IMG/VR virus record: IMGVR_UViG_3300031853_000015 | Span: 19,485-83,484 of that record | Strand: one strand, 5' to 3' | DNA: 64,000 bases | DNA from: a virus | Lineage: Duplodnaviria; Caudoviricetes | Shown here: piece after piece, positions 1,843 through 64,000 of the stretch | Numbering within the stretch: the first letter of the stretch is position 1 | How the letters are laid out: each line of letters starts with the position of its first letter | The notes under the pieces: model-generated | The model's input: the letters and a program-made list of their open reading frames with translations, nothing else | Told to the model about the DNA's origin: nothing | Databases searched by the model: none | Program-made: the position numbers and the translations under genes

Positions 1843-4800
1843 ATGAATAGAGCATATTGTTATAGCCCTCAAGCTATTGATAAAAAACTGGCAAATTATA
1901 TGAGTACTCGTCCTTATGCTATAGCATGGACTCCTGGATTTATAGCTACTCTAAGAGGTGCTTATGATCTTGCCAATGGTTTCTCTGAAGAACAGGGTAA
2001 GGTTAATCCTATGTGGTCTTTAGATATAGATACTGAAGATTATGATGGAGACAGTGTACAAGCGGATAACCTTTATAATATAGCACAAACTTTAGCAGAC
2101 TTTAGATTTGAGAAAAAGAAGGAACAAGCAAATGCTATAAATAATTTTAATGAAAATAGAACTGAAATATGGACAACTATTTCAGATAATTATTCTGATT
2201 TAAATACATTTTATCAGAGAGCTTCTCAACTTTCCTTCTATTTTATTCAAGCTGTAGATAATTATATAGAACAACAAAGGTTGGAGGGTAAAATATTCAC
2301 TAGAAAGCAGATTATTGAAGGCATTCCTTTGGAAGATGAAGATGGTCATTATGTTATGTCTAATGGAAAGCCTATGATGGCAATAGATTCTGATAAAATA
2401 TTTAGTGCTGTATTCAATAGGTTTATGGAGGATTATTCTGAAAGAATGGATGATCCTAATACTAAAGAAGCAGCAAAGAAAGAATATTATCATAATGAGT
2501 ATCAGAAGATATTTAATCCTAAAGTATGGGCGGCTTTATTAATGGCCTCTAAAGCCCAGCTTAAACAAATGGAGGGATTAAAGGTTAGTCTTACTGATAA
2601 TAGTGCTTCTGAAGTAGATTTAAGTACTCTTAATGATAATGATTTATCAGACTTATTTATTGCAGAAGAATCTGTCAGGGAAGGTTGGCAAGTAATTACA
2701 GATTGTTTATCTGCTTATGGAAATCTTTCCAAAGAAGTTAGAAAGGCTTTGAGTTATATACCTTTATTAGATGAAAAAGGGCAAGCTTTAGAAGATGACT
2801 TAGGTTACGATATAAGAATGAGTTCTATAACTGCTTATCATGATTTAATGGATTTACTTAGGAATTGTCGAAGTAAATCCAAAATGATGAAACTTATTGA
2901 GAGAAGTCAAGGATTTAGAAGCCTTTATGATAAATTAGTTAATAATGAGGTTCTTCAGTCCCAATTATATAATAACTTTAGAAAAACATCCCAACTTTAT
3001 GTACAGATACAATGGGAATGGAATAAAATTAAGTTTTATGTTTTAAATAAAACTAAAGGAGAGCATTCTGTAGGAAATTATTTATTTAGTATAAAATATC
3101 GTCCTGCAGGAAGTAGTATAGCTGCTTCTAGTAGAACTCATTGGAGCCAAGCAGATCTTGATTCTTTAAGCAACCTTTTAAAACAGTTTGAAGATAAATA
3201 TGATTCTGATGGGAAGTTAACCTATAGTTTCTGGAAAGAAAGGGCAACTCAACAGGCAACCCTTCTACGTAAAGTTTTTAATGCTTTAGGTATAGCATAT
3301 ACTGATAAGGCCCTTTCTACTTTATTAGATAATAAAAAGAATCTTTCCGAGGTTGTTAAACAGCTTGCAGGTTTAAGCCAACATGGAGGATTAAAAAGTG
3401 AGAGAGCTGACACTGAAGGATACAATTTTTATGCTTGGCTTACTTATAAAACTAAAGAACAGGAAAAGGGTGATACTCAAGCTAAAATTGAAAAGATCAT
3501 CACTAAACTTGAAGAGAGTGGTAATGGAATTGTTTATGAAAATAAATGTAGAACTGTAAATGGTAAAGGACAATCTGTTACTTACTATGGTGATGTACAG
3601 CCAAATTTTATGGGAGACTTATTAGGCAAAATTCAATCTTTTGCTCAAGCATTTCCAGAAGAAAGGGAAGAAAGTAGAAAAGAATTTAAAGAGTGGTTAC
3701 GTAATAAATATTTTTCTAGTTCTCAATTTTGCACAGATTTTGATGCAGAGGGTAATCCTAAATCTTCCAGTAATGTTAAAAACTTTTTATTAAGAACTCT
3801 TTGGGAAGAAGCTAATGCTGATGTAACCAATGCTAGAATAGAAGCAACTAATAAGCAAAGAAAATTAGATAATGAGGCACCTCTTCCTTATGTTACTGAT
3901 ATGTTTGATGATAATAGCCTTACCTCTCAGTTTCGATTTATGAGAGTTGTAACAGGTAAGTATCAACAGACAGTCATTCCTTTTGAAAACTTTACTACTA
4001 AGCAACATTTTGAACAATTAGTAGGTTCTTATTTTGCATTAGACACTCAATCGAATCAGCAAATGCAGGAATTTGTTTATGTTCCTGTATTTGTATTAGG
4101 AGACAGTGGAGTATGTAAAGTTCTTAAAATAAAAAGAAAATCTACTTTTGATGATTATCAAGATGATAAATTTAATGGAGATTCAGTTGTTGAAGAACTA
4201 TATAACCTTTATGAGTCAGAACTTAGAAGAATGACTCTTTTCCAAAAATTTATTGAACAGAATAATAAAAAACATATTAAAAATAATCCTAATATACTCA
4301 AAACTTCCAAGAAATTTACAATGCTCACTTTCTTAAATGAAGAATTTAAAGGCAGAGACTTTAAAACTCTTGGAAAACAAGAAGTAAAACAGGCTATTAA
4401 TAAGTACTTAGAAAAAGGATTTGCCGCATTTTTAAAAGTAGGAGAAAATACAGGAGCTCTCAAAGTAGATAGTTCTGGAAAACTAGGAAAGAATCCTATG
4501 TATCAAGATATATGTAGGATAGCAGATCCTAGGAAAGAAGCCCATTCTAAAACTCCTGCACTTAGGGAAAGGCTTAAAGAGCTTTATTATAATGTATATC
4601 TTTCCAATCTTTTACAGTATCAGATTTTTACTGGAGACTTAGGATATTACGAAAGTGTAAAGGAGTTTCAGAAGAGATATAAGGAAGTTCATGCTCCAGG
4701 AGAAGTATTGGATGTAAATGCTACTTGGAAAGGTAAGGAAGTAGTTAAGGCAAATGCTCAAGGACTTAAAACTCAAAAGACAATATATTTTGAAGATATT

Positions 4801-7800
4801 GGAGTCAGTGTAGAAGAAAATAATAAGGAGCTTGCTGAAGTACTTCTTAAATTACATTCCTCTGATAGAGCTGCAGCTGAAAAAGCCATCGCTGAGGGTA
4901 TTTTAGAGCCTAAGAAAGGAATAGAAGAGGATGAAAGACAAAAGCGACTTAAAGAACTTTTAGGAAGTAATTATAATGTATATTTAAAGTTCATTACTAC
5001 TCCTAAATCTGAAGTAACACGTGGTTCAAGTGGTAGTTCTCAAACAGATGGTCAAGGTTTTAGGCATATAGATTCTTATAGAAAGATAGAAATAATGAGA
5101 GGTACTTGGAGTAGCAATCCTCTTAAGGAAGTATTGTATCAAGAGGTCTCAACTATTAATGAAGATTGTATAAAGAATCATCGCAATCCTACTCCTGAAG
5201 AACTTGATAGAATTCAAGCCTTCCATGTGACAATAATGCCTTTAAAGCCTTACCTATTTACTATGGAAAAAGTACATATAAATGATGGAAAGACTGATGA
5301 TAATCTGTTTGTTCCTGTACAACATAAATATGCAGAAGCTATATTAATTCCTTGCCTGCTTCCTGTTGGAAGTAAACTTAGAGAAGTAGCTGAGTATATG
5401 GGAGAGAATAATATTGATTTGATATGTTCTGATTCTGTAGTAAAGGTAGGTATGTGGGGACAAACTGATATTGAGGAAAAGAGTTCCACTGACATTTCTA
5501 GCTTTGTTAATGAGGCAAAGAAGAATATTAGTAAACTGCCTTCATCAGTTAAAACTGATAGCAGTCCTCTTAGAATAATGAGTATTGAAAAGGGTCTTGA
5601 TTTTAATATTTCTGTAGGAGAAACCTATAATGTCAAGTTAGATGATAAAAATGCTCAATATCATATTCTTGGGTATGAACAAGATGGAGATCAACATCTT
5701 TCTAAAATATGGTTTACATCTTCTGAAGCTCCCAATAAAGTATCTAGTTTAGTAGGAAGCACTCTTGCAGAATTTATTGATGCTGCAGGTAGTCATAATC
5801 CCATTAAAGCTAATACTAACAGTACTATAAATATTAAGGATAATCTATCAAAAGCTGTTATACATGAATTGAATTATGAAGATTATAGAATTCAATCTAA
5901 TGTTCCTGAACATATAAATGTAGAAAGGGCATTGGGTACTCAGATAAGGAAACTTATTATGGGTAATATTAATATGTTTTCTAAGGATGTTTATGGATAC
6001 TTAAAAGATAAAAATGGAGAAGATATATCTTTTAGACTTACTAAAGGAGGAAGTAAAATGAAACTTACTGGTAGAAATCTAGTTTCTTTATATACTTCTC
6101 TTATAGTAGCTAATATGATGCAATCTTTTGCTAAGTTTAAAAGAAATATTGAAAATGAAAAGAAATTAAGTACCCTTCTTACTTCTGCTATTGTTAATAA
6201 TGATAGGTACTCTTTACATCAATTGCTAGACATAGCAGTTAATGATGGCGAGTTTGCTACTCCTTTATATGAAGGTTCTATAGAGCATGATACTATAAGT
6301 ATGATAGCCAGTATCTTCAGAAAAGAAGTTAATAAGCAGGATATGAATGGAGGTAGTGCTGTACAAGTTTCTGATTGGGGAATTACTGCTAAAGAAGAAG
6401 TTACAGGTACTGAAAGACCTCTTAAATTTGTAACGGATGTAAATAATGAAAATGTATTATATGCAGAAATTGAAATTCCTTTTAACTTTACTTATATCAA
6501 TTCTGATGGTATAGAAGTGGCTTTGGACTTTAATACTTATTGTAACCCTGATGGAACTTTTAAATTAACAGGTAATACTATTGATATAAAAGGAGTCAAA
6601 GTAGCAGAAACTAAAATAGAGCATGATTTTCCTGGCATACTAGACATAATTGCATATAGAATTCCTTCAGAAAGATGTTACTCAATGCTTAATTGTAGAG
6701 TAGTCAGATGTTCCAATATGACAGCTGGAGGTACTATAAGAGTTCCAGCCCAAGGTACTACTATTGCAGGTTTTGACTTTGATATTGATAAGTTATACTT
6801 ATTAAGAAGAAGTTTTGTTAAACGAAGAGTAGCTGTAGAATCTGCATATTCAGGAGCCGAAAAGTATGATATTTTTGCTAAAATATATGCTATGGATGCT
6901 GAAAGACAAAGAGTTCTTGAAGCTAAAGATAAGTCTCAAAAAGCAAATATTATTAATGCTCAAGCAGAGAAGACTTTAAGAGAAATGAATCAAGATCCTG
7001 ATGATTATGCTTCAGTAGAATCTCTTTGGGAAGAACTTTTTATAAATCTAGAAAGTCCTTATACTACAGTATATGAAGAACTAAGTAATGAAGATAAAGA
7101 TTATTTAGAGAATAAGCTCATAATACCAGGAGAAAGATTAAAAAATGTAATTTTCTTAAGCAATCTCTTTAATGAGGAGAAAAGACGTAAAGTTTCAGAA
7201 ATCTCCGATGATAAAATTTACAAAGGATCTGAAGTTTTTCATATGTTATTTGATGAACTGAATAATGGTCAAATAAGTAAAAAAGGTTGGAAAATTTATA
7301 ATAAATTAGACTATTCTCAGGAATATTATGATGAGGAACAAGTAAGAGAAGATGAAGACTATATTCCTTCTTCTGCTATAATATCTAAGTTAAGAGCTAT
7401 AAGAGAAGCTTCAGGAGAATATCACTATGAAAAAACTGCCAAAGGAAAAGTAAAGAAGGTTTATGATAAGGCTTTAGCTGAATACTGGAATACTATGATT
7501 GAGCAGAATCCTTATATGGAAGGTGAAGATGCTTATGATAAAGGCAAACTCTTTGAACAAGCAGCAAAAGAACTTGGCTTATGGAAAGAGATTGAATATA
7601 AGGAAGAACTTGAAAATTATGATTTTGATAAAGGAGTAACACAGAATAGTAGGTCCTCTAGAAATAATCTTATCTTTGAGTTAATGAGACAGAGACTTAT
7701 GGACCCTGAGACTCTTAGAGATAGGTTAACTCCGGGTGGATTTGATAATTCTAGAAATGCTGCTGCATATTTGAAAAAGCTTCTACATATTAATGAAGAA

Positions 7801-54385: not shown

Positions 54386-54410
54386 ATTTTATTTTATGTT
54401 AAAATAAATG

Positions 54411-54482
54411 TACCCCCACTAGGATTCGAACCCAGACAAGAAGGCCTAGAATCTTCCGTGCTAGCCATTACACCATAGGGGA
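54411..54482 (-). tRNA. Amber suppressor tRNA (anticodon CTA), Gln-type body
   Basis: TCCCCTA TG GTGT AATGGCTA GCAC G GAAGA-TTCTAGG-CCTTC ... CTGGG-TTCGAAT-CCTAG TGGGGGT A. Weak 1-72 pair and G37, as in the neighbouring tRNA-Gln. Confidence 0.9.
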
Positions 54483-61079: not shown

Positions 61080-61397
61080 ATTATCTTTAAAATTAAATAT
61101 AACAATCCCTAAGCCTAGGTTTTCACCTTTGCTCAGACATATATTACTATATGCCATTAACCACTAATACTTCAGATAGGCGGTTAACCCCTAGAGCACT
61201 TTACCCTCAACCTTTTCTCATCTCCTTTGGTGTGCTACTATCTTATTATATTATTTGTGGTCATTTTTGGTCAGGGATTAAACCTCTTCTCTATATGTAC
61301 TATGTACTGAGAATACTACCCCTGTCAACAACTAGGTCTGTATCTTGTTAATATGATTCCTAGTCGGAGATATTCTTTAGGAGATTCAGAATAACGC

Positions 61398-61407
61398 TGC
61401 AAAGATA
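61398..61407 (-). promoter_or_regulatory. Bacteroidota -7 promoter at the head of the late module
   Basis: TATCTTTGCA with a TTTG-like element about 20 nt upstream. Confidence 0.75.
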
Positions 61408-61435
61408 GTAATAAAATTTGATATAACCAAATAAT

Positions 61436-61625
61436 TAATAAAATTTAACTATCAAATAAAGTAAAAAATTAATTTTTGAAATTTTTTTTTAAATTTTTAT
61501 TTTAAATTTTTTTTCTATTTTTTTTTATTTTTTTTTCTAAATCTTTTGTATTTACATGAGCGGGGTATTTTACACTCTTCCCCCCGTATTGAGATAGACA
61601 ATTGGGTACATACCCCCTAGGGTCT
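61436..61625. other. Strand-switch region with poly-T tracts and G/C runs (candidate genome end or origin)
   Basis: About 110 nt of nearly pure T/A tracts, then CGGGG...CCCCCCG and GGGTACATACCCC; gene orientation flips here. Confidence 0.45.
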
Positions 61626-61776
61626 ATCAAGGAGTACTGATTCCAAATACTACTTACAAATGCTACTAGGAACTAGTACTCCCTACTATACCAATGGTAT
61701 AGCAAGTGAGAGACAGAAACTCACTATAATAAAACGGAGGGAAGGAAAACCCTAAAGTAAACCACCTCATTTAAAG

Positions 61777-61849
61777 CTGTCCACTCAATAAGTTTCAAGC
61801 GCAGAGACTGCGTTGGGTGGACAGTAAATAACAATCAGCAGTCTCTGCG
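61777..61849 (+). ncRNA. H-type pseudoknot in the leader of the first early gene
   Basis: S1 61777-61788 with 61813-61824 (12 bp, one G-U); S2 61800-61811 with 61838-61849 (12 bp perfect). Confidence 0.65.
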
Positions 61850-61857
61850 AAGATTCT

Positions 61858-62157
61858 ATGAAGTATCAGCAGACATGGAAAGATTGTTTCATTCATCATC
61901 AGACACAGAAGGACGTTATTCTCCAGAGAATACGTGAAGCCAAACTGAAAGCTGCTAAGTATTCTATGAAGAGATGGAATGAGCTTTACGAGATTAACAA
62001 AAAGCTCTCTGATGAATTCTGGGCATTGTCAGATAAATACCACTCTACAGGGGATTCTGACAAAACATTGGTTTGGAGTATGCGTAGTCTCCATACCAAG
62101 ATGTCTAAGAATAATGAAGAAATGGATCTTATCTGGAAGTTTAACCATAAAAGCTAG
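61858..62157 (+). CDS. Early hypothetical protein, 99 aa, ends at TAG
   Basis: Complete ORF in the standard code; readthrough would add 18 aa up to TAA 62209-62211. Confidence 0.65.
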   Translation: MKYQQTWKDCFIHHQTQKDVILQRIREAKLKAAKYSMKRWNELYEINKKLSDEFWALSDKYHSTGDSDKTLVWSMRSLHTKMSKNNEEMDLIWKFNHKS

Positions 62158-62166
62158 ACTTCCTTA

Positions 62167-62268
62167 ACAGGTCATGGCCCTGTAGAACAGACTTTACATC
62201 TGTTCTACTAAGCCCATTAAGCCATGAGCGTCCCCACACTATGCGCTTGAATAGTGTGGGGGGTTGGG
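62167..62268 (+). ncRNA. Pistol self-cleaving ribozyme
   Basis: P1 ACAGG/CCTGT; pseudoknot TCATGG/CCATGA; P2 CCCA/TGGG; TTAAG; GCGT; 11-bp P3; GGT cleavage junction (predicted 62263/62264). Same element order as env25 pistol. Confidence 0.8.
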
Positions 62269-62340
62269 AATAAAGGGTTAATCCAAAAGCCCATCACATA
62301 AGTGATAAAAAGGATATAACTTTATAAATTCTAAATACAT

Positions 62341-62568
62341 ATGATGTATAAGGAATTTAAAGTAGAAGTCTCAAAGACTCTCGCTGCTAAAGTATGCATA
62401 TCCAAAGAGGATTTGCATGCTCTGGGTGTTAGTACCTCAGAGGTAGCAGAAGAGTTCTTGAAGTCTAACCCTGAATATAAAAGCTGCACTTCTGATGCAG
62501 ACTTTAATAATGGGGTTTGGACTATCTCTTTCTATACTACTTCTGAAGTAGTATTTAAGGAGGTGTAA
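62341..62568 (+). CDS. Early hypothetical protein, 75 aa
   Basis: Complete ORF after an AT-rich leader; TAA stop. Confidence 0.7.
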   Translation: MMYKEFKVEVSKTLAAKVCISKEDLHALGVSTSEVAEEFLKSNPEYKSCTSDADFNNGVWTISFYTTSEVVFKEV

Positions 62569-62621
62569 GACTCTCTGCAAGTTGGGTTTAGGCACACCCA
62601 ATATATAGACAAAAGGCATCT

Positions 62622-62659
62622 TGACTTAATGGGAGATTCAAATAGAAATCTCCCATAGT
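62622..62659 (+). promoter_or_regulatory. Repeated leader hairpin, copy 1 (TGACTTAA-stem-TTCAAATAGAAA-stem-AGT)
   Basis: ATGGGAGA/TCTCCCAT stem; 12-nt loop identical to copy 2. Confidence 0.6.
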
Positions 62660-62683
62660 AATTAACCTTTAAATTCAGATGAT

Positions 62684-62875
62684 ATGAATATATTAGCTGG
62701 ATTCGCACTATGCAGTTTCTTTACTGTGTGTGTAGTGTTCATGCTGGATGCAGCAGTGGATACTACGTACCGCAGTAAATATGCGAAGATTGCTATGTAT
62801 ACTTATGTAAGCATAGCAACTCTTCTTGTAGGAGCTGCATGGTTGTTACTTATATACTCAGCTGTATGTAAGTAA
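62684..62875 (+). CDS. Early two-TM membrane protein, 63 aa
   Basis: Two hydrophobic helices; TAA stop. Confidence 0.7.
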   Translation: MNILAGFALCSFFTVCVVFMLDAAVDTTYRSKYAKIAMYTYVSIATLLVGAAWLLLIYSAVCK

Positions 62876-62929
62876 TAACAATTGGTTGCCAATGGGCATT
62901 AAATGACAGGTAGGGCTGTCAGCCAAACT

Positions 62930-62982
62930 TTCCTCCATTACAATGGGTATTAAGGAGGGTTCAAATCCCTCTGGAGGAACTA
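62930..62982 (+). ncRNA. Minimal tRNA-like element (acceptor + T arm), copy 1
   Basis: TTCCTCCA/TGGAGGAA stem; GAGGG-TTCAAAT-CCCTC T arm; 17-nt linker. Confidence 0.55.
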
Positions 62983-63111
62983 TGTCATGTAGGCTGTCAT
63001 TAGTATGCCTAAGAGTATTGCAGGCTCTGCTTGGCAACTGTTAAAGTACCAAGTTAATAAGACTAATGTGACGAGGGAAAGACCTAATTGCCACTTTAAT
63101 AATCCAAGGGC

Positions 63112-63402
63112 ATGGAAAGTAATATGAATACCTTCTTTAATAATCTTGTTGCTGCTGGTGCTAAGTATCACAACTGTGCCAATGGCGTAGCTGTAGAATT
63201 ATGTGGGCACTTCTGGGTGTTCACTGACACCAAAGAGCCAATCTCCTTGTGGGGAGATGGTAATGGTAGTTATGTCTCTGTACCTCTCAGTACAAAGAGA
63301 CCAGTTGTTTTGGTCGAGAGAGAAAGTATAGCCTGGGGAAAATACTGGGAATTAAGATATAGTATTCCCTTGGATGGAAGTAAATATAGGGTATTTTGTT
63401 AA
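63112..63402 (+). CDS. Early hypothetical protein, about 93-96 aa
   Basis: Complete ORF with TAA stop; start may be ATG 63112 or 63124. Confidence 0.7.
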   Translation: MESNMNTFFNNLVAAGAKYHNCANGVAVELCGHFWVFTDTKEPISLWGDGNGSYVSVPLSTKRPVVLVERESIAWGKYWELRYSIPLDGSKYRVFC

Positions 63403-63434
63403 TATTACAGTCCTACCAAATGACTATAAAATGG

Positions 63435-63470
63435 TGACTTAAAGAAGGTTCAAATAGAAACCTTCAAAGT
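63435..63470 (+). promoter_or_regulatory. Repeated leader hairpin, copy 2
   Basis: TGACTTAA-A-GAAGG-TTCAAATAGAAA-CCTTC-AAAGT. Confidence 0.6.
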
Positions 63471-63491
63471 ATAATAAATATAATATATGAT

Positions 63492-63818
63492 ATGAGAAAT
63501 CAATATTGTATTTATTGTGACTCTATCCATGATGAGAAATCTGAGATGCTCACAAATGGCATTTACAGATGTATTCATCTGGATACCTTCCTTAGAGATT
63601 ATAAGGAAGAGTTTGACATTAATAATGATCTTATCATTATTAATGATCCTGACTCTGCTATTAAAATGGCAGATTCTGCTAAGATTCTTCCTTTCTACCT
63701 TAAAGAAGCAATTCTTCATACTTTGGAAGTTGCTTCTAGGTATGCTCTCAGGAAGGACTGGCCAGATGCGTGGTTAAGGGCTGAAGAAGCAAAGCTCTTA
63801 ATCTACAATAGTCTGTAG
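63492..63818 (+). CDS. Early hypothetical protein, 108 aa, ends at TAG
   Basis: N-terminal YCIYCDSIHD (CxxC); TAG stop; readthrough would add 6 aa up to TGA. Confidence 0.7.
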   Translation: MRNQYCIYCDSIHDEKSEMLTNGIYRCIHLDTFLRDYKEEFDINNDLIIINDPDSAIKMADSAKILPFYLKEAILHTLEVASRYALRKDWPDAWLRAEEAKLLIYNSL

Positions 63819-63868
63819 TCTGTAGAGTCACATTGAGTTTCAAATCTCAATATAGACAAAATTGGGCA

Positions 63869-63956
63869 TCCTCCAACTACACAATAAAAGTGTAGGAAAT
63901 GGCTATACTCTCATACTACTGAGAGTTAGGTAGTTCAATTCTATCTGGAGGAACTA
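63869..63956 (+). ncRNA. tRNA-like element, copy 2
   Basis: TCCTCCA/TGGAGGA acceptor; GGTAG-TTCAATT-CTATC T arm; two internal hairpins; same 3' TGGAGGAACTA as copy 1. Confidence 0.55.
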
Positions 63957-64000
63957 AGCAGATGCCTAACTGCTATAACAAAATAGGAAGGGTAAAACCT

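Follow-up and report, generated by a model that had tools for sequence, protein, structure and literature searches.

Why does a bacteriophage keep more than a third of the start of what appears to be its early operon free of protein-coding information? The question is raised by the far end of a 64-kb stretch of DNA (hereafter the window), which forms the last part of an 83,484-bp viral contig (IMG/VR record IMGVR_UViG_3300031853_000015) and whose end coincides with that of the contig. The contig derives from a crAss-like phage of the bovine gut. In a + strand block that begins after a divergent, AT-rich region, five small genes are separated by long spacers, so that 766 of the 2104 nucleotides (nt) between positions 61858 and 63961 (36%) are non-coding. 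Each of the six spacers between 61550 and 63961 (6/6) was found to contain a discrete RNA fold that is not a terminator. We favor, at about an even chance of being right, the reading that the first 2.4 kb are transcribed into one polycistronic + strand RNA, and that the spacers carry interchangeable cis-acting modules that would cut this RNA into gene-sized mRNAs and cap the newly formed ends. Cutting at the RNA level is the most economical reading because the block is syntenic with an early operon, has no internal terminator-like sites and no excess of promoter-like ones, and contains a probable pistol-type ribozyme as well as two putative substrates of the RNase P/RNase Z type.

The genes of the block, all on the + strand, encode proteins of 99 (gene 1, 61858..62157, TAG stop), 75 (gene 2, 62341..62568), 63 (gene 3, 62684..62875, hydrophobic), 96 (gene 4, 63112..63402), and 108 amino acids (gene 5, 63492..63818, TAG stop). 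Codon scores of the five open reading frames (ORFs) were positive in frame and negative out of frame (e.g., +0.075 in frame for gene 1 and +0.277 for gene 2), as they are in other small genes of this genome; the gaps of the block and ORFs on the minus strand scored as non-coding. The leader ahead of gene 1 measures 308 nt, and the gaps that follow measure 183, 115, 236, 89, and 143 nt. Gaps in the late region and in the left-hand + strand block are few and mostly 48-230 nt long.

A previous sequence-only reading of this DNA had listed the elements of the block in a certain order, and this order was borne out: leader with a possible pseudoknot, gene, pistol, gene, hairpin module, gene, tRNA-like element, gene, hairpin module, gene, and a hairpin followed by a tRNA-like element. 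Five perfect stems of at least 10 bp occur between 61550 and 64000, compared with 0.095 in dinucleotide shuffles, and the fold z-scores of the six gaps are, in order, -7.3, -5.8, -2.7, -1.7, -1.5, and -3.7. No + strand site resembling a terminator (a G+C hairpin followed by a T-run) was detected in 61100-64000, and a scan of the early block for sigma-70-type promoters revealed no promoter-like excess. The late gaps had been described as mostly plain terminators and promoters; they are single G+C hairpins followed by T-runs and hence have the canonical terminator architecture. Since their z-scores of -3 to -5 make them equally structured, the proposed contrast between early and late gaps holds for their kind and length but not for their stability.

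The base pairs themselves indicate the strand on which these folds operate. The 21 helices comprise 135 Watson-Crick and 7 G-U pairs, with neither mismatches nor A-C pairs. An eighth non-Watson-Crick pair was read by hand in the hairpin X1 discussed below (G62581-U62602), and all eight are G-U on the + strand. The presence of G-U and the absence of A-C therefore point to folds acting as + strand RNA rather than as DNA hairpins or as minus-strand RNA.

Gene 1 is followed by a predicted pistol-type self-cleaving ribozyme (62167..62268, + strand), which matched Rfam family RF02679 with 31.7 bits and an expectation value (E) of 0.0027 in a search of 2.9 kb, both strands, against all Rfam families. 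Helices P1 (62167-71/62179-83; 5 bp), P2 (62213-16/62265-68; 4 bp), and P3 (62231-42/62251-62; 11 Watson-Crick pairs and one U-G pair, which closes the helix) are all present, as is the 6-bp pseudoknot that joins the P1 loop to the P2-P3 junction (UCAUGG, 62172-77, with CCAUGA, 62222-27). Judged against the catalytic residues and the architecture known from the env25 structure, as reviewed in PMC6154101, the core is complete: purine-32 and G33 correspond to A62220 and G62221 (62220-21), G40-C41-G42 to G62228, C62229, and G62230 (62228-30), and the 2-nt G-U junction, where the cut is predicted, to G62263-U62264. With the canonical pistol (RF02679; PMC6154101) the element shares P1, the 6-bp pseudoknot, P2, P3, A32, G33, G40-C41-G42, and the scissile G-U junction; it differs in a 23-nt hairpin between P1 and P2 (62184-62206), in the apparent lack of the consensus A-rich linker, in its long 12-bp P3, and in a score below the family cut-off. 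The P1-P2 linker consists of the hairpin plus ACUAAG, with which the consensus AUAAAUA aligns only partly, and the Rfam pistol alignment includes insertions of 23 nt and 11 nt. The segment is probably a slightly atypical pistol, for which cleavage is predicted. Pistols are known from the literature as phage-associated ribozymes, including in Alistipes, a genus of the Bacteroidales. A self-cut at G62263|U62264 would leave a structured 3' end on gene 1, and the leader of gene 2 would start with a 5'-OH. We also observed that genes 1 and 5 end in TAG (62155-62157 and 63816-63818), yet the phage possesses a tRNA with the anticodon CTA (54410-54482); read-through of the gene 1 stop would enter P1 of the pistol.

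The gap between genes 2 and 3 carries a module of a different kind (62576..62661, + strand), which we refer to as X-H and which, with its 3' hairpin, stops 27 nt before the AUG at 62684. Hairpin X1 (62581-62602) is followed by the invariant ATATAGACAAAA (62603-62614), then by TTGACTTAA (62621-62629) and by hairpin H1 (62629-62656) with the loop TTCAAATAGAAA. A second H module (63388..63472, + strand) precedes gene 5 and consists of TGACTTAA (63435-63442) and hairpin H2 (63444-63465), which carries the 12-nt loop of H1 on an exchanged stem and again stops 27 nt before the AUG (63492). H1 and H2 have the invariant TGACTTAA and the invariant 12-nt loop in common. The last gap contains a further X hairpin, X2 (63832-63851, + strand), followed by ATAGACAAAA (63852-63861); X1 and X2 each precede the invariant ATATAGACAAAA. 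The designation "T-loop hairpin" that H1 and H2 had been given was not borne out, because their loop of 8 nt (12 nt with two U-A pairs opened) is closed by U-A and not by a G-C pair, and only the letters TTCAAAT are in common with a T-loop.

The composite of X, linker, and H recurs in two other viral contigs (designated L048 and L092), with the same linker motifs and with H stems that differ in sequence while remaining complementary. L048 is a 15-kb contig whose early-type block opens with a T-rich tract and a G/C hairpin similar to those of the leader described below; in L092, the module is flanked by two tiny ORFs that belong to a promoter-to-terminator unit. A covariance model, R1, was built from the three composites, so that its scores for window gap 2 (103 bits, E 5.9e-19), L048 (100 bits, E 2.5e-18), and L092 (84 bits, E 6e-15) are those of training sequences. 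Among the other matches, window gap 4 scored 34 bits (E 5e-4), contig L086 22.8 bits (E 0.13), and a second site in L048 20.5 bits (E 0.39). X alone is found in four further contigs, three of which are 95-100 kb long and thus crAss-like in size (L174 2115-2177, minus strand; L175 4143-4205 and 4895-4957; L191 1201-1263; L227 10850-10912); an X-type hairpin is also present at L048 4892-4954 (minus strand). These X-type hairpins read GTTGGG...CCCAAC followed by GTGTAGACAAAA, and the five bases after ACAAAA are complementary to part of their loop, a pairing that, judged by inspection, covaries and exists in four different versions (UGCCU/AGGCA, GGCCU/AGGCC, GAUUU/AAAUC, and CCUAU/AUAGG). Such pairing can give a compact H-type pseudoknot with an A-rich strand; it is absent from the X copies of the window.

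No Rfam family matched X or H. A riboswitch of the preQ1-I type was considered for X, but the Rfam preQ1 models gave no match in the window (E up to 10) or in L174, L175, L191, L227, and L092 (E up to 1). A sigma-70 reading of TTGACT-N16-TAGAAA was likewise unsupported, as the L092 copy alters the TA of the '-10' element and promoter-like sequences are not in excess. A GGCATC-extended X pattern and a scan of the genome collection both returned unrelated sequences only, and most matches from two loose motif scans were due to chance or to other conserved sequences without hairpins. X-H may represent a new RNA family, of which at least three viral contigs contain a member. Under the processing reading, an endonuclease would cut the conserved, A-rich, single-stranded linker, after which X would serve as a 3' cap and H as a 5' cap located 27 nt before the start codon. 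As a separate observation, L175, the contig with two X hairpins, contains at 7001-7503 a hammerhead-like core (CUGAUGAG...CGAAAC; E 0.048) that lies 70 nt 5' of a tRNA; a weak RAGATH-12 match (E 0.1) comes next.

tRNA-like elements occupy the gaps after genes 3 and 5. They were detected with a descriptor that specifies a 7-bp acceptor stem stacked directly on a 5-bp T stem, the G53-C61 pair, and a TTCRANN loop; over the 83-kb genome it returned five of the true tRNAs and, besides these, only the elements A and B, with 0.05 matches expected from shuffled genomes. Element A (62883..63039, + strand) possesses a 48-nt core (62931-62978) composed of a 7-bp acceptor stem, a 17-nt linker, and the T arm GAGGG-TTCAAAT-CCCTC; the trailer ACTA comes after it. 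This core has neither a D arm nor an anticodon arm and is nested in outer helices (62884-91/63032-39, 62894-99/63005-10, and 62902-09/62994-63001). Element B shares its region with X2 (63832..63967, + strand; z = -3.9), and its core (63869-63952) contains a 7-bp acceptor stem, a D-like hairpin whose loop lacks GG, an anticodon-like hairpin with a loop of 6 nt instead of 7 nt, and the T arm GGTAG-TTCAATT-CTATC, again followed by ACTA. In both elements this A-CTA resembles the discriminator and trailer of the CCA-less tRNA genes that the phage itself carries. Three pairs differ between the T stems of A and B with pairing retained, two of them by double changes and one by a change from A-U to G-U. 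A GGGCA(U)/(A)UGCCU helix encloses each of the two elements; in B (63864-68/63963-67) it includes the AUG (63962) of the next gene, which encodes 219 amino acids.

Neither element was called a tRNA by ARAGORN at default settings, and neither had a + strand match to RF00005 at E up to 10. The Rfam model Plastid-ycf2, which matches tRNAs in antisense, scored A with 33.8 bits (E 1.5e-4) and B with 25.5 bits; the antisense strands of true tRNAs from related phages gave 28.8-32.8 bits. In 61100-64000, the models of transfer-messenger RNA (tmRNA) and permuted tmRNA gave no match with an E of up to 10, and in the metagenome contig L019 that extends the window (see below) none with an E of up to 1. 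Scans for the tRNA-like pattern yielded nothing in viral contigs, and only chance matches and L019 in metagenomes. The possibility that A and B are copies of host tRNA 3' ends of the attP type was rejected because both acceptor strands are present, the differences between the copies are compensatory, and no integrase was seen. What A and B do carry is the 12-bp acceptor/T-arm helix that RNase P and RNase Z recognize; the host RNase P together with an RNase Z-type enzyme would accordingly be able to excise both, and in the case of B, excision would in addition free the AUG of the following gene from the 5-bp helix.

The leader ahead of gene 1 begins with a chain of five hairpins (61555..61730, + strand; z = -2.85 for 61555-61700 and -7.3 for 61550-61857). 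According to an alignment, its G-run/C-run hairpin after a T-rich tract is common to phage cr128_1. Further downstream, two 12-bp helices are interleaved (61777..61849, + strand; S1 61777-61788/61813-61824, S2 61800-61811/61838-61849). One of these inverted repeats pairs with 12/12 Watson-Crick pairs and the other with 11 Watson-Crick pairs and one G-U; S2 counts among the five perfect long stems of the block. The structure stops 8 nt 5' of AUG 61858. The helices can form an H-type pseudoknot or a two-state switch, and the latter is equally possible because the 5' arm of S2 can also fold on itself. As a pseudoknot, the leader would protect or gate the 5' end of the transcript.

Just upstream of the early block, at 61178-61245, a 68-nt non-coding element separates it from the divergent late/tRNA block. 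The element is 80-90% identical in crAss001, cr112_1, cr128_1, and ten IMG/VR contigs with flanks that do not align, and it constitutes the only DNA similarity to deposited phages within 61100-64000. Its invariant 22-mer TTTACCCTCAACCTTTTCTCAT lies in the loop of a covarying 5-bp stem (AGCAC/GTGCT versus AGCCT/AGGCT). No Rfam family matched it; we regard it as a candidate early promoter, leader, or non-coding RNA. In crAss001, the same element precedes the early operon, which is transcribed within 10 min of infection (PMC8375218); the present block, likewise downstream of the element, shows synteny with that operon. The label "early" is reasonable on the grounds of this synteny.

Related phages place tRNA-family RNAs in the same setting. 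Early blocks of the crAss001, cr112_1, and cr128_1 type contain true tRNAs and a tmRNA, which are substrates of RNase P, and those of crAss001 and cr112_1 a gene for a TROVE (Ro60-like) protein; an Rfam search of the relatives' early regions found tRNAs and tmRNAs and no ribozymes. In phage phi14:2, the intergenic regions g004-g005 and g005-g006 are, according to the literature, transcribed more strongly than most genes, and early 5' ends have no common upstream motif. We found that the non-coding stretch g004-g006 holds a tmRNA gene, with a score of 46 bits (E 4.5e-16; the cut-off is 47). Within their early-type blocks, Asinivirinae-like phages encode tmRNAs at L022 4031-4502 (phi14:2), L004 6348-6800, L008 10119-10569, and L175 12111-12325, the last being permuted. 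Since the early blocks of the relatives and of phi14:2 carry tRNAs or tmRNAs, tRNA-family RNAs in the early transcript are a family trait, judged from these sequences, and the present phage has non-decoding mimics at a like place. Two further features of the relatives deserve mention. In crAss001 (L014 2454-2597, minus strand), the tRNA model matches a 144-nt segment that includes a large insertion; this segment lies directly after the TROVE gene and could be a Y-RNA-like partner or an intron-containing tRNA. Within the tRNA clusters of crAss001-type phages, an unannotated 94-nt tRNA-like element with a 7-bp acceptor, a canonical T arm, and no obvious D arm occurs at L001 681-774 (minus strand), L003 1121-1214 (minus strand), and L009 3252-3345 (+ strand).

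To follow the block past the end of the window, we used L019, which is identical to 63874-64000 and runs 7.86 kb further; the gene that follows element B starts at its position 89. Beyond element B it contains about 20 packed + strand ORFs with gaps of at most 69 nt, and no tRNA or Rfam match at E up to 1. The claim that every early gap carries a structured element consequently holds for the spacers of the first 2.4 kb and fails beyond 63961; the extension of the analysis that the sequence-only reading had called for revealed no such elements among these further genes. With downstream gaps that are short and devoid of the elements, the pattern is confined to the first five genes. Some L019 gaps do contain a simple hairpin and a recurring TAACTATTAACAATT leader; at 2704-2759, 3509-3575, and 4764-4825 (approximately 66577-68698 in window numbering), the hairpin is followed by TAACTATTAACAATT just before a start codon, and a related AACAATT occurs at 62873-62884 of the window and ahead of the earliest gene in the early block of cr128_1. 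None of the ten largest L019 ORFs has a Pfam or PHROG family, and the early proteins of the window had no Pfam or PHROG family above noise, so that no function could be assigned to them. The 108-amino-acid protein of gene 5 is an orphan with no homologue among 5.8 billion proteins, and neither it nor the neighboring 176-amino-acid protein, used as a query, retrieved a viral contig. Within the coding region of gene 5, a perfect 13-bp hairpin (CATTAATAATGAT/ATCATTATTAATG; 3-nt loop; 63617-63645) represents the longest perfect stem of the block.

The presence of tRNA-family RNAs and TROVE genes in the relatives raises the possibility that A, B, and perhaps X-H are genes for trans-acting small RNAs, either tRNA decoys or Y-RNA-like partners of Ro60/TROVE or of another tRNA-binding factor; release from the operon would then be a by-product and not the purpose. 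We consider this unlikely, although several findings speak for it. The same early block of the relatives has true tRNA, tmRNA, and TROVE genes; tRNA-like domains are part of bacterial Y RNAs, which are also found in phages (PMC4201824); a long interrupted helix bears element A at its tip, an arrangement expected of a Y RNA; and early intergenic RNA of phi14:2 is more abundant than most mRNAs. Shared with YrlA Y RNAs (Chen et al., 2014; PMC4201824) are a long helix tipped by a tRNA-like acceptor and T arm, and relatives of the phage that encode TROVE. The likeness ends, however, at the order of the arms, which in A and B is that of a normal tRNA and not permuted as in YrlA, and at the Ro-binding motif GNCGAA, which is absent, with no CGAA in either A or B. 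No TROVE match was obtained in the 83-kb contig, the ten largest ORFs of the 7.9-kb extension are without a Pfam/PHROG family, and no Rfam Y-RNA or tmRNA model matched at E up to 10. The pistol and the fixed 27-nt spacing between H and the start codons would also be left unexplained.

For the hairpin modules, a reading at the DNA level has to be weighed as well, in which H (TTGACTTAA plus hairpin) and perhaps X would be promoters, one per small gene, read by an injected phage RNA polymerase or by the host enzyme; each transcript would then begin with a 5' hairpin. The virion RNA polymerase of phage N4 uses hairpin promoters. In line with such a function, TTGACTTAA is invariant and keeps a fixed distance to the hairpin, which in turn is spaced 27 nt from the ATG in the two copies of the window as well as in L048 and L092, and gp66 of phi14:2 favors single-stranded DNA templates according to the literature. 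The helices contain G-U and never A-C pairs, however, and H of L092 and the second L048 site also use G-U; the loops, with their 8-12 nt, are large by the standard of extruded DNA hairpins; and the L048 and L092 modules lie inside short operons that have promoter-like and terminator modules of their own. Early 5' ends of phi14:2 lack a common upstream motif, and the sigma-70-type scan found no excess. A promoter for each gene, which the sequence-only reading had set against its own proposal, thus finds no counterpart in the promoter scan; H as a promoter stays a rival, but in our view quite an improbable one. Least probable of all is that the elements have lost their function and are decaying, the ribozyme being dead and the tRNA-like parts pseudogenes left over from the tRNA- and ribozyme-rich early regions of relatives, as might be read from the failure of A and B to be recognized as tRNAs, from the pistol score under the Rfam cut-off, and from the real tRNAs of relatives at the corresponding place, because every helix is intact, all pistol catalytic residues are retained, the differences between the paralogues are compensatory, and a dead spacer fraction of 36% is rarely kept in phage genomes.

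The proposal that the early RNA is processed draws support from synteny, the lack of terminators, the complete pistol core, and the acceptor/T-arm modules, from the high non-coding share of the block compared with the packed genes downstream and in the late region, from the RNase P substrates that relatives carry in the same block, and from phi14:2, with its abundant early intergenic RNA and early 5' ends that have no promoter motif in common; the part of it that concerns the hairpin modules is less secure, as these could be promoters or protein operators. Several findings weigh against the processing reading. The pistol scores 2.8 bits below the Rfam gathering cut-off (31.7 versus 34.5 bits), has a hairpin inserted in its P1-P2 linker, and appears to lack the A-rich consensus there. 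The two gaps that contain only hairpins hold no recognized cutter, and gaps 3 and 4 are not significantly stabler than shuffles (z = -1.7 and -1.5). The start codon is part of a helix only in B; in A, the corresponding ATG begins an ORF of just 40 codons with a non-coding score. The comparative covariation that had been suggested as a check did reveal compensatory stems, between A and B, among the exchanged H and X stems of the window, and in the X-H modules of L048 and L092, but it rests on paralogues and three distant contigs.

Parts of this arrangement have precedents. Clustered hammerhead ribozymes flank single genes in phage and prophage operons, transcripts of about 2 kb are cleaved in vitro, and the cutting of long transcripts was proposed in 2011 (Perreault et al., 2011; PMC3088659); pistol, twister-sister, and hatchet ribozymes were found near such genes (Harris et al., 2015; PMC4604425). 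The present block resembles these operons in having a predicted self-cleaver just past a stop codon, with small genes of unknown function on either side that belong to a single transcription unit, and in the proposed role, namely the cutting of long phage transcripts into gene-length mRNAs. It differs from them in that a single ribozyme is present, the other gaps contain tRNA-like or two-hairpin modules, and the setting is a crAss-like early operon.

tRNAs punctuate polycistronic RNAs in animal mitochondria, as do the t-elements of plant mitochondria, and the mascRNA of MALAT1 is a related case. Common to these systems and to the block described here is a non-decoding acceptor/T-arm mimic that separates coding regions and at which the mRNA ends would be set by RNase P and RNase Z; in our case it stands in a bacteriophage operon, mixed with ribozyme and hairpin modules, and the processing is predicted. 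In phage T7, RNase III sites in the early mRNA yield monocistronic mRNAs with hairpin ends. The comparison with these sites drawn by the sequence-only reading holds functionally only: structured intergenic sites in an early polycistronic phage RNA are shared, but long regular double-stranded helices are not found here, and cutting would be done by the RNA itself or by tRNA-processing enzymes. Ribozyme-punctuated phage operons are thus already known in outline; what is new is the crAss-like early setting, the mixture of modules, and the X-H motif.

More generally, and tentatively, crAss-like and related phages of the Bacteroidota may use a few exchangeable punctuation cassettes, whether ribozyme, tRNA-like minihelix, or X-H module, to segment and time their earliest transcript, with X-H as a new class of processing site that has a nuclease or protein as its partner and with a tRNA-like element whose excision would unmask a start codon. 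crAss-like phages rank among the most abundant viruses of the gut, and little is known of how they make and control their first transcripts. With ribozyme, tRNA-like, and hairpin modules in equivalent positions, the compact block makes it possible to test whether phage ribozymes and tRNA-like elements serve as interchangeable mRNA-processing signals, and the purpose of phage ribozymes, a long-standing puzzle, becomes addressable in a defined operon.

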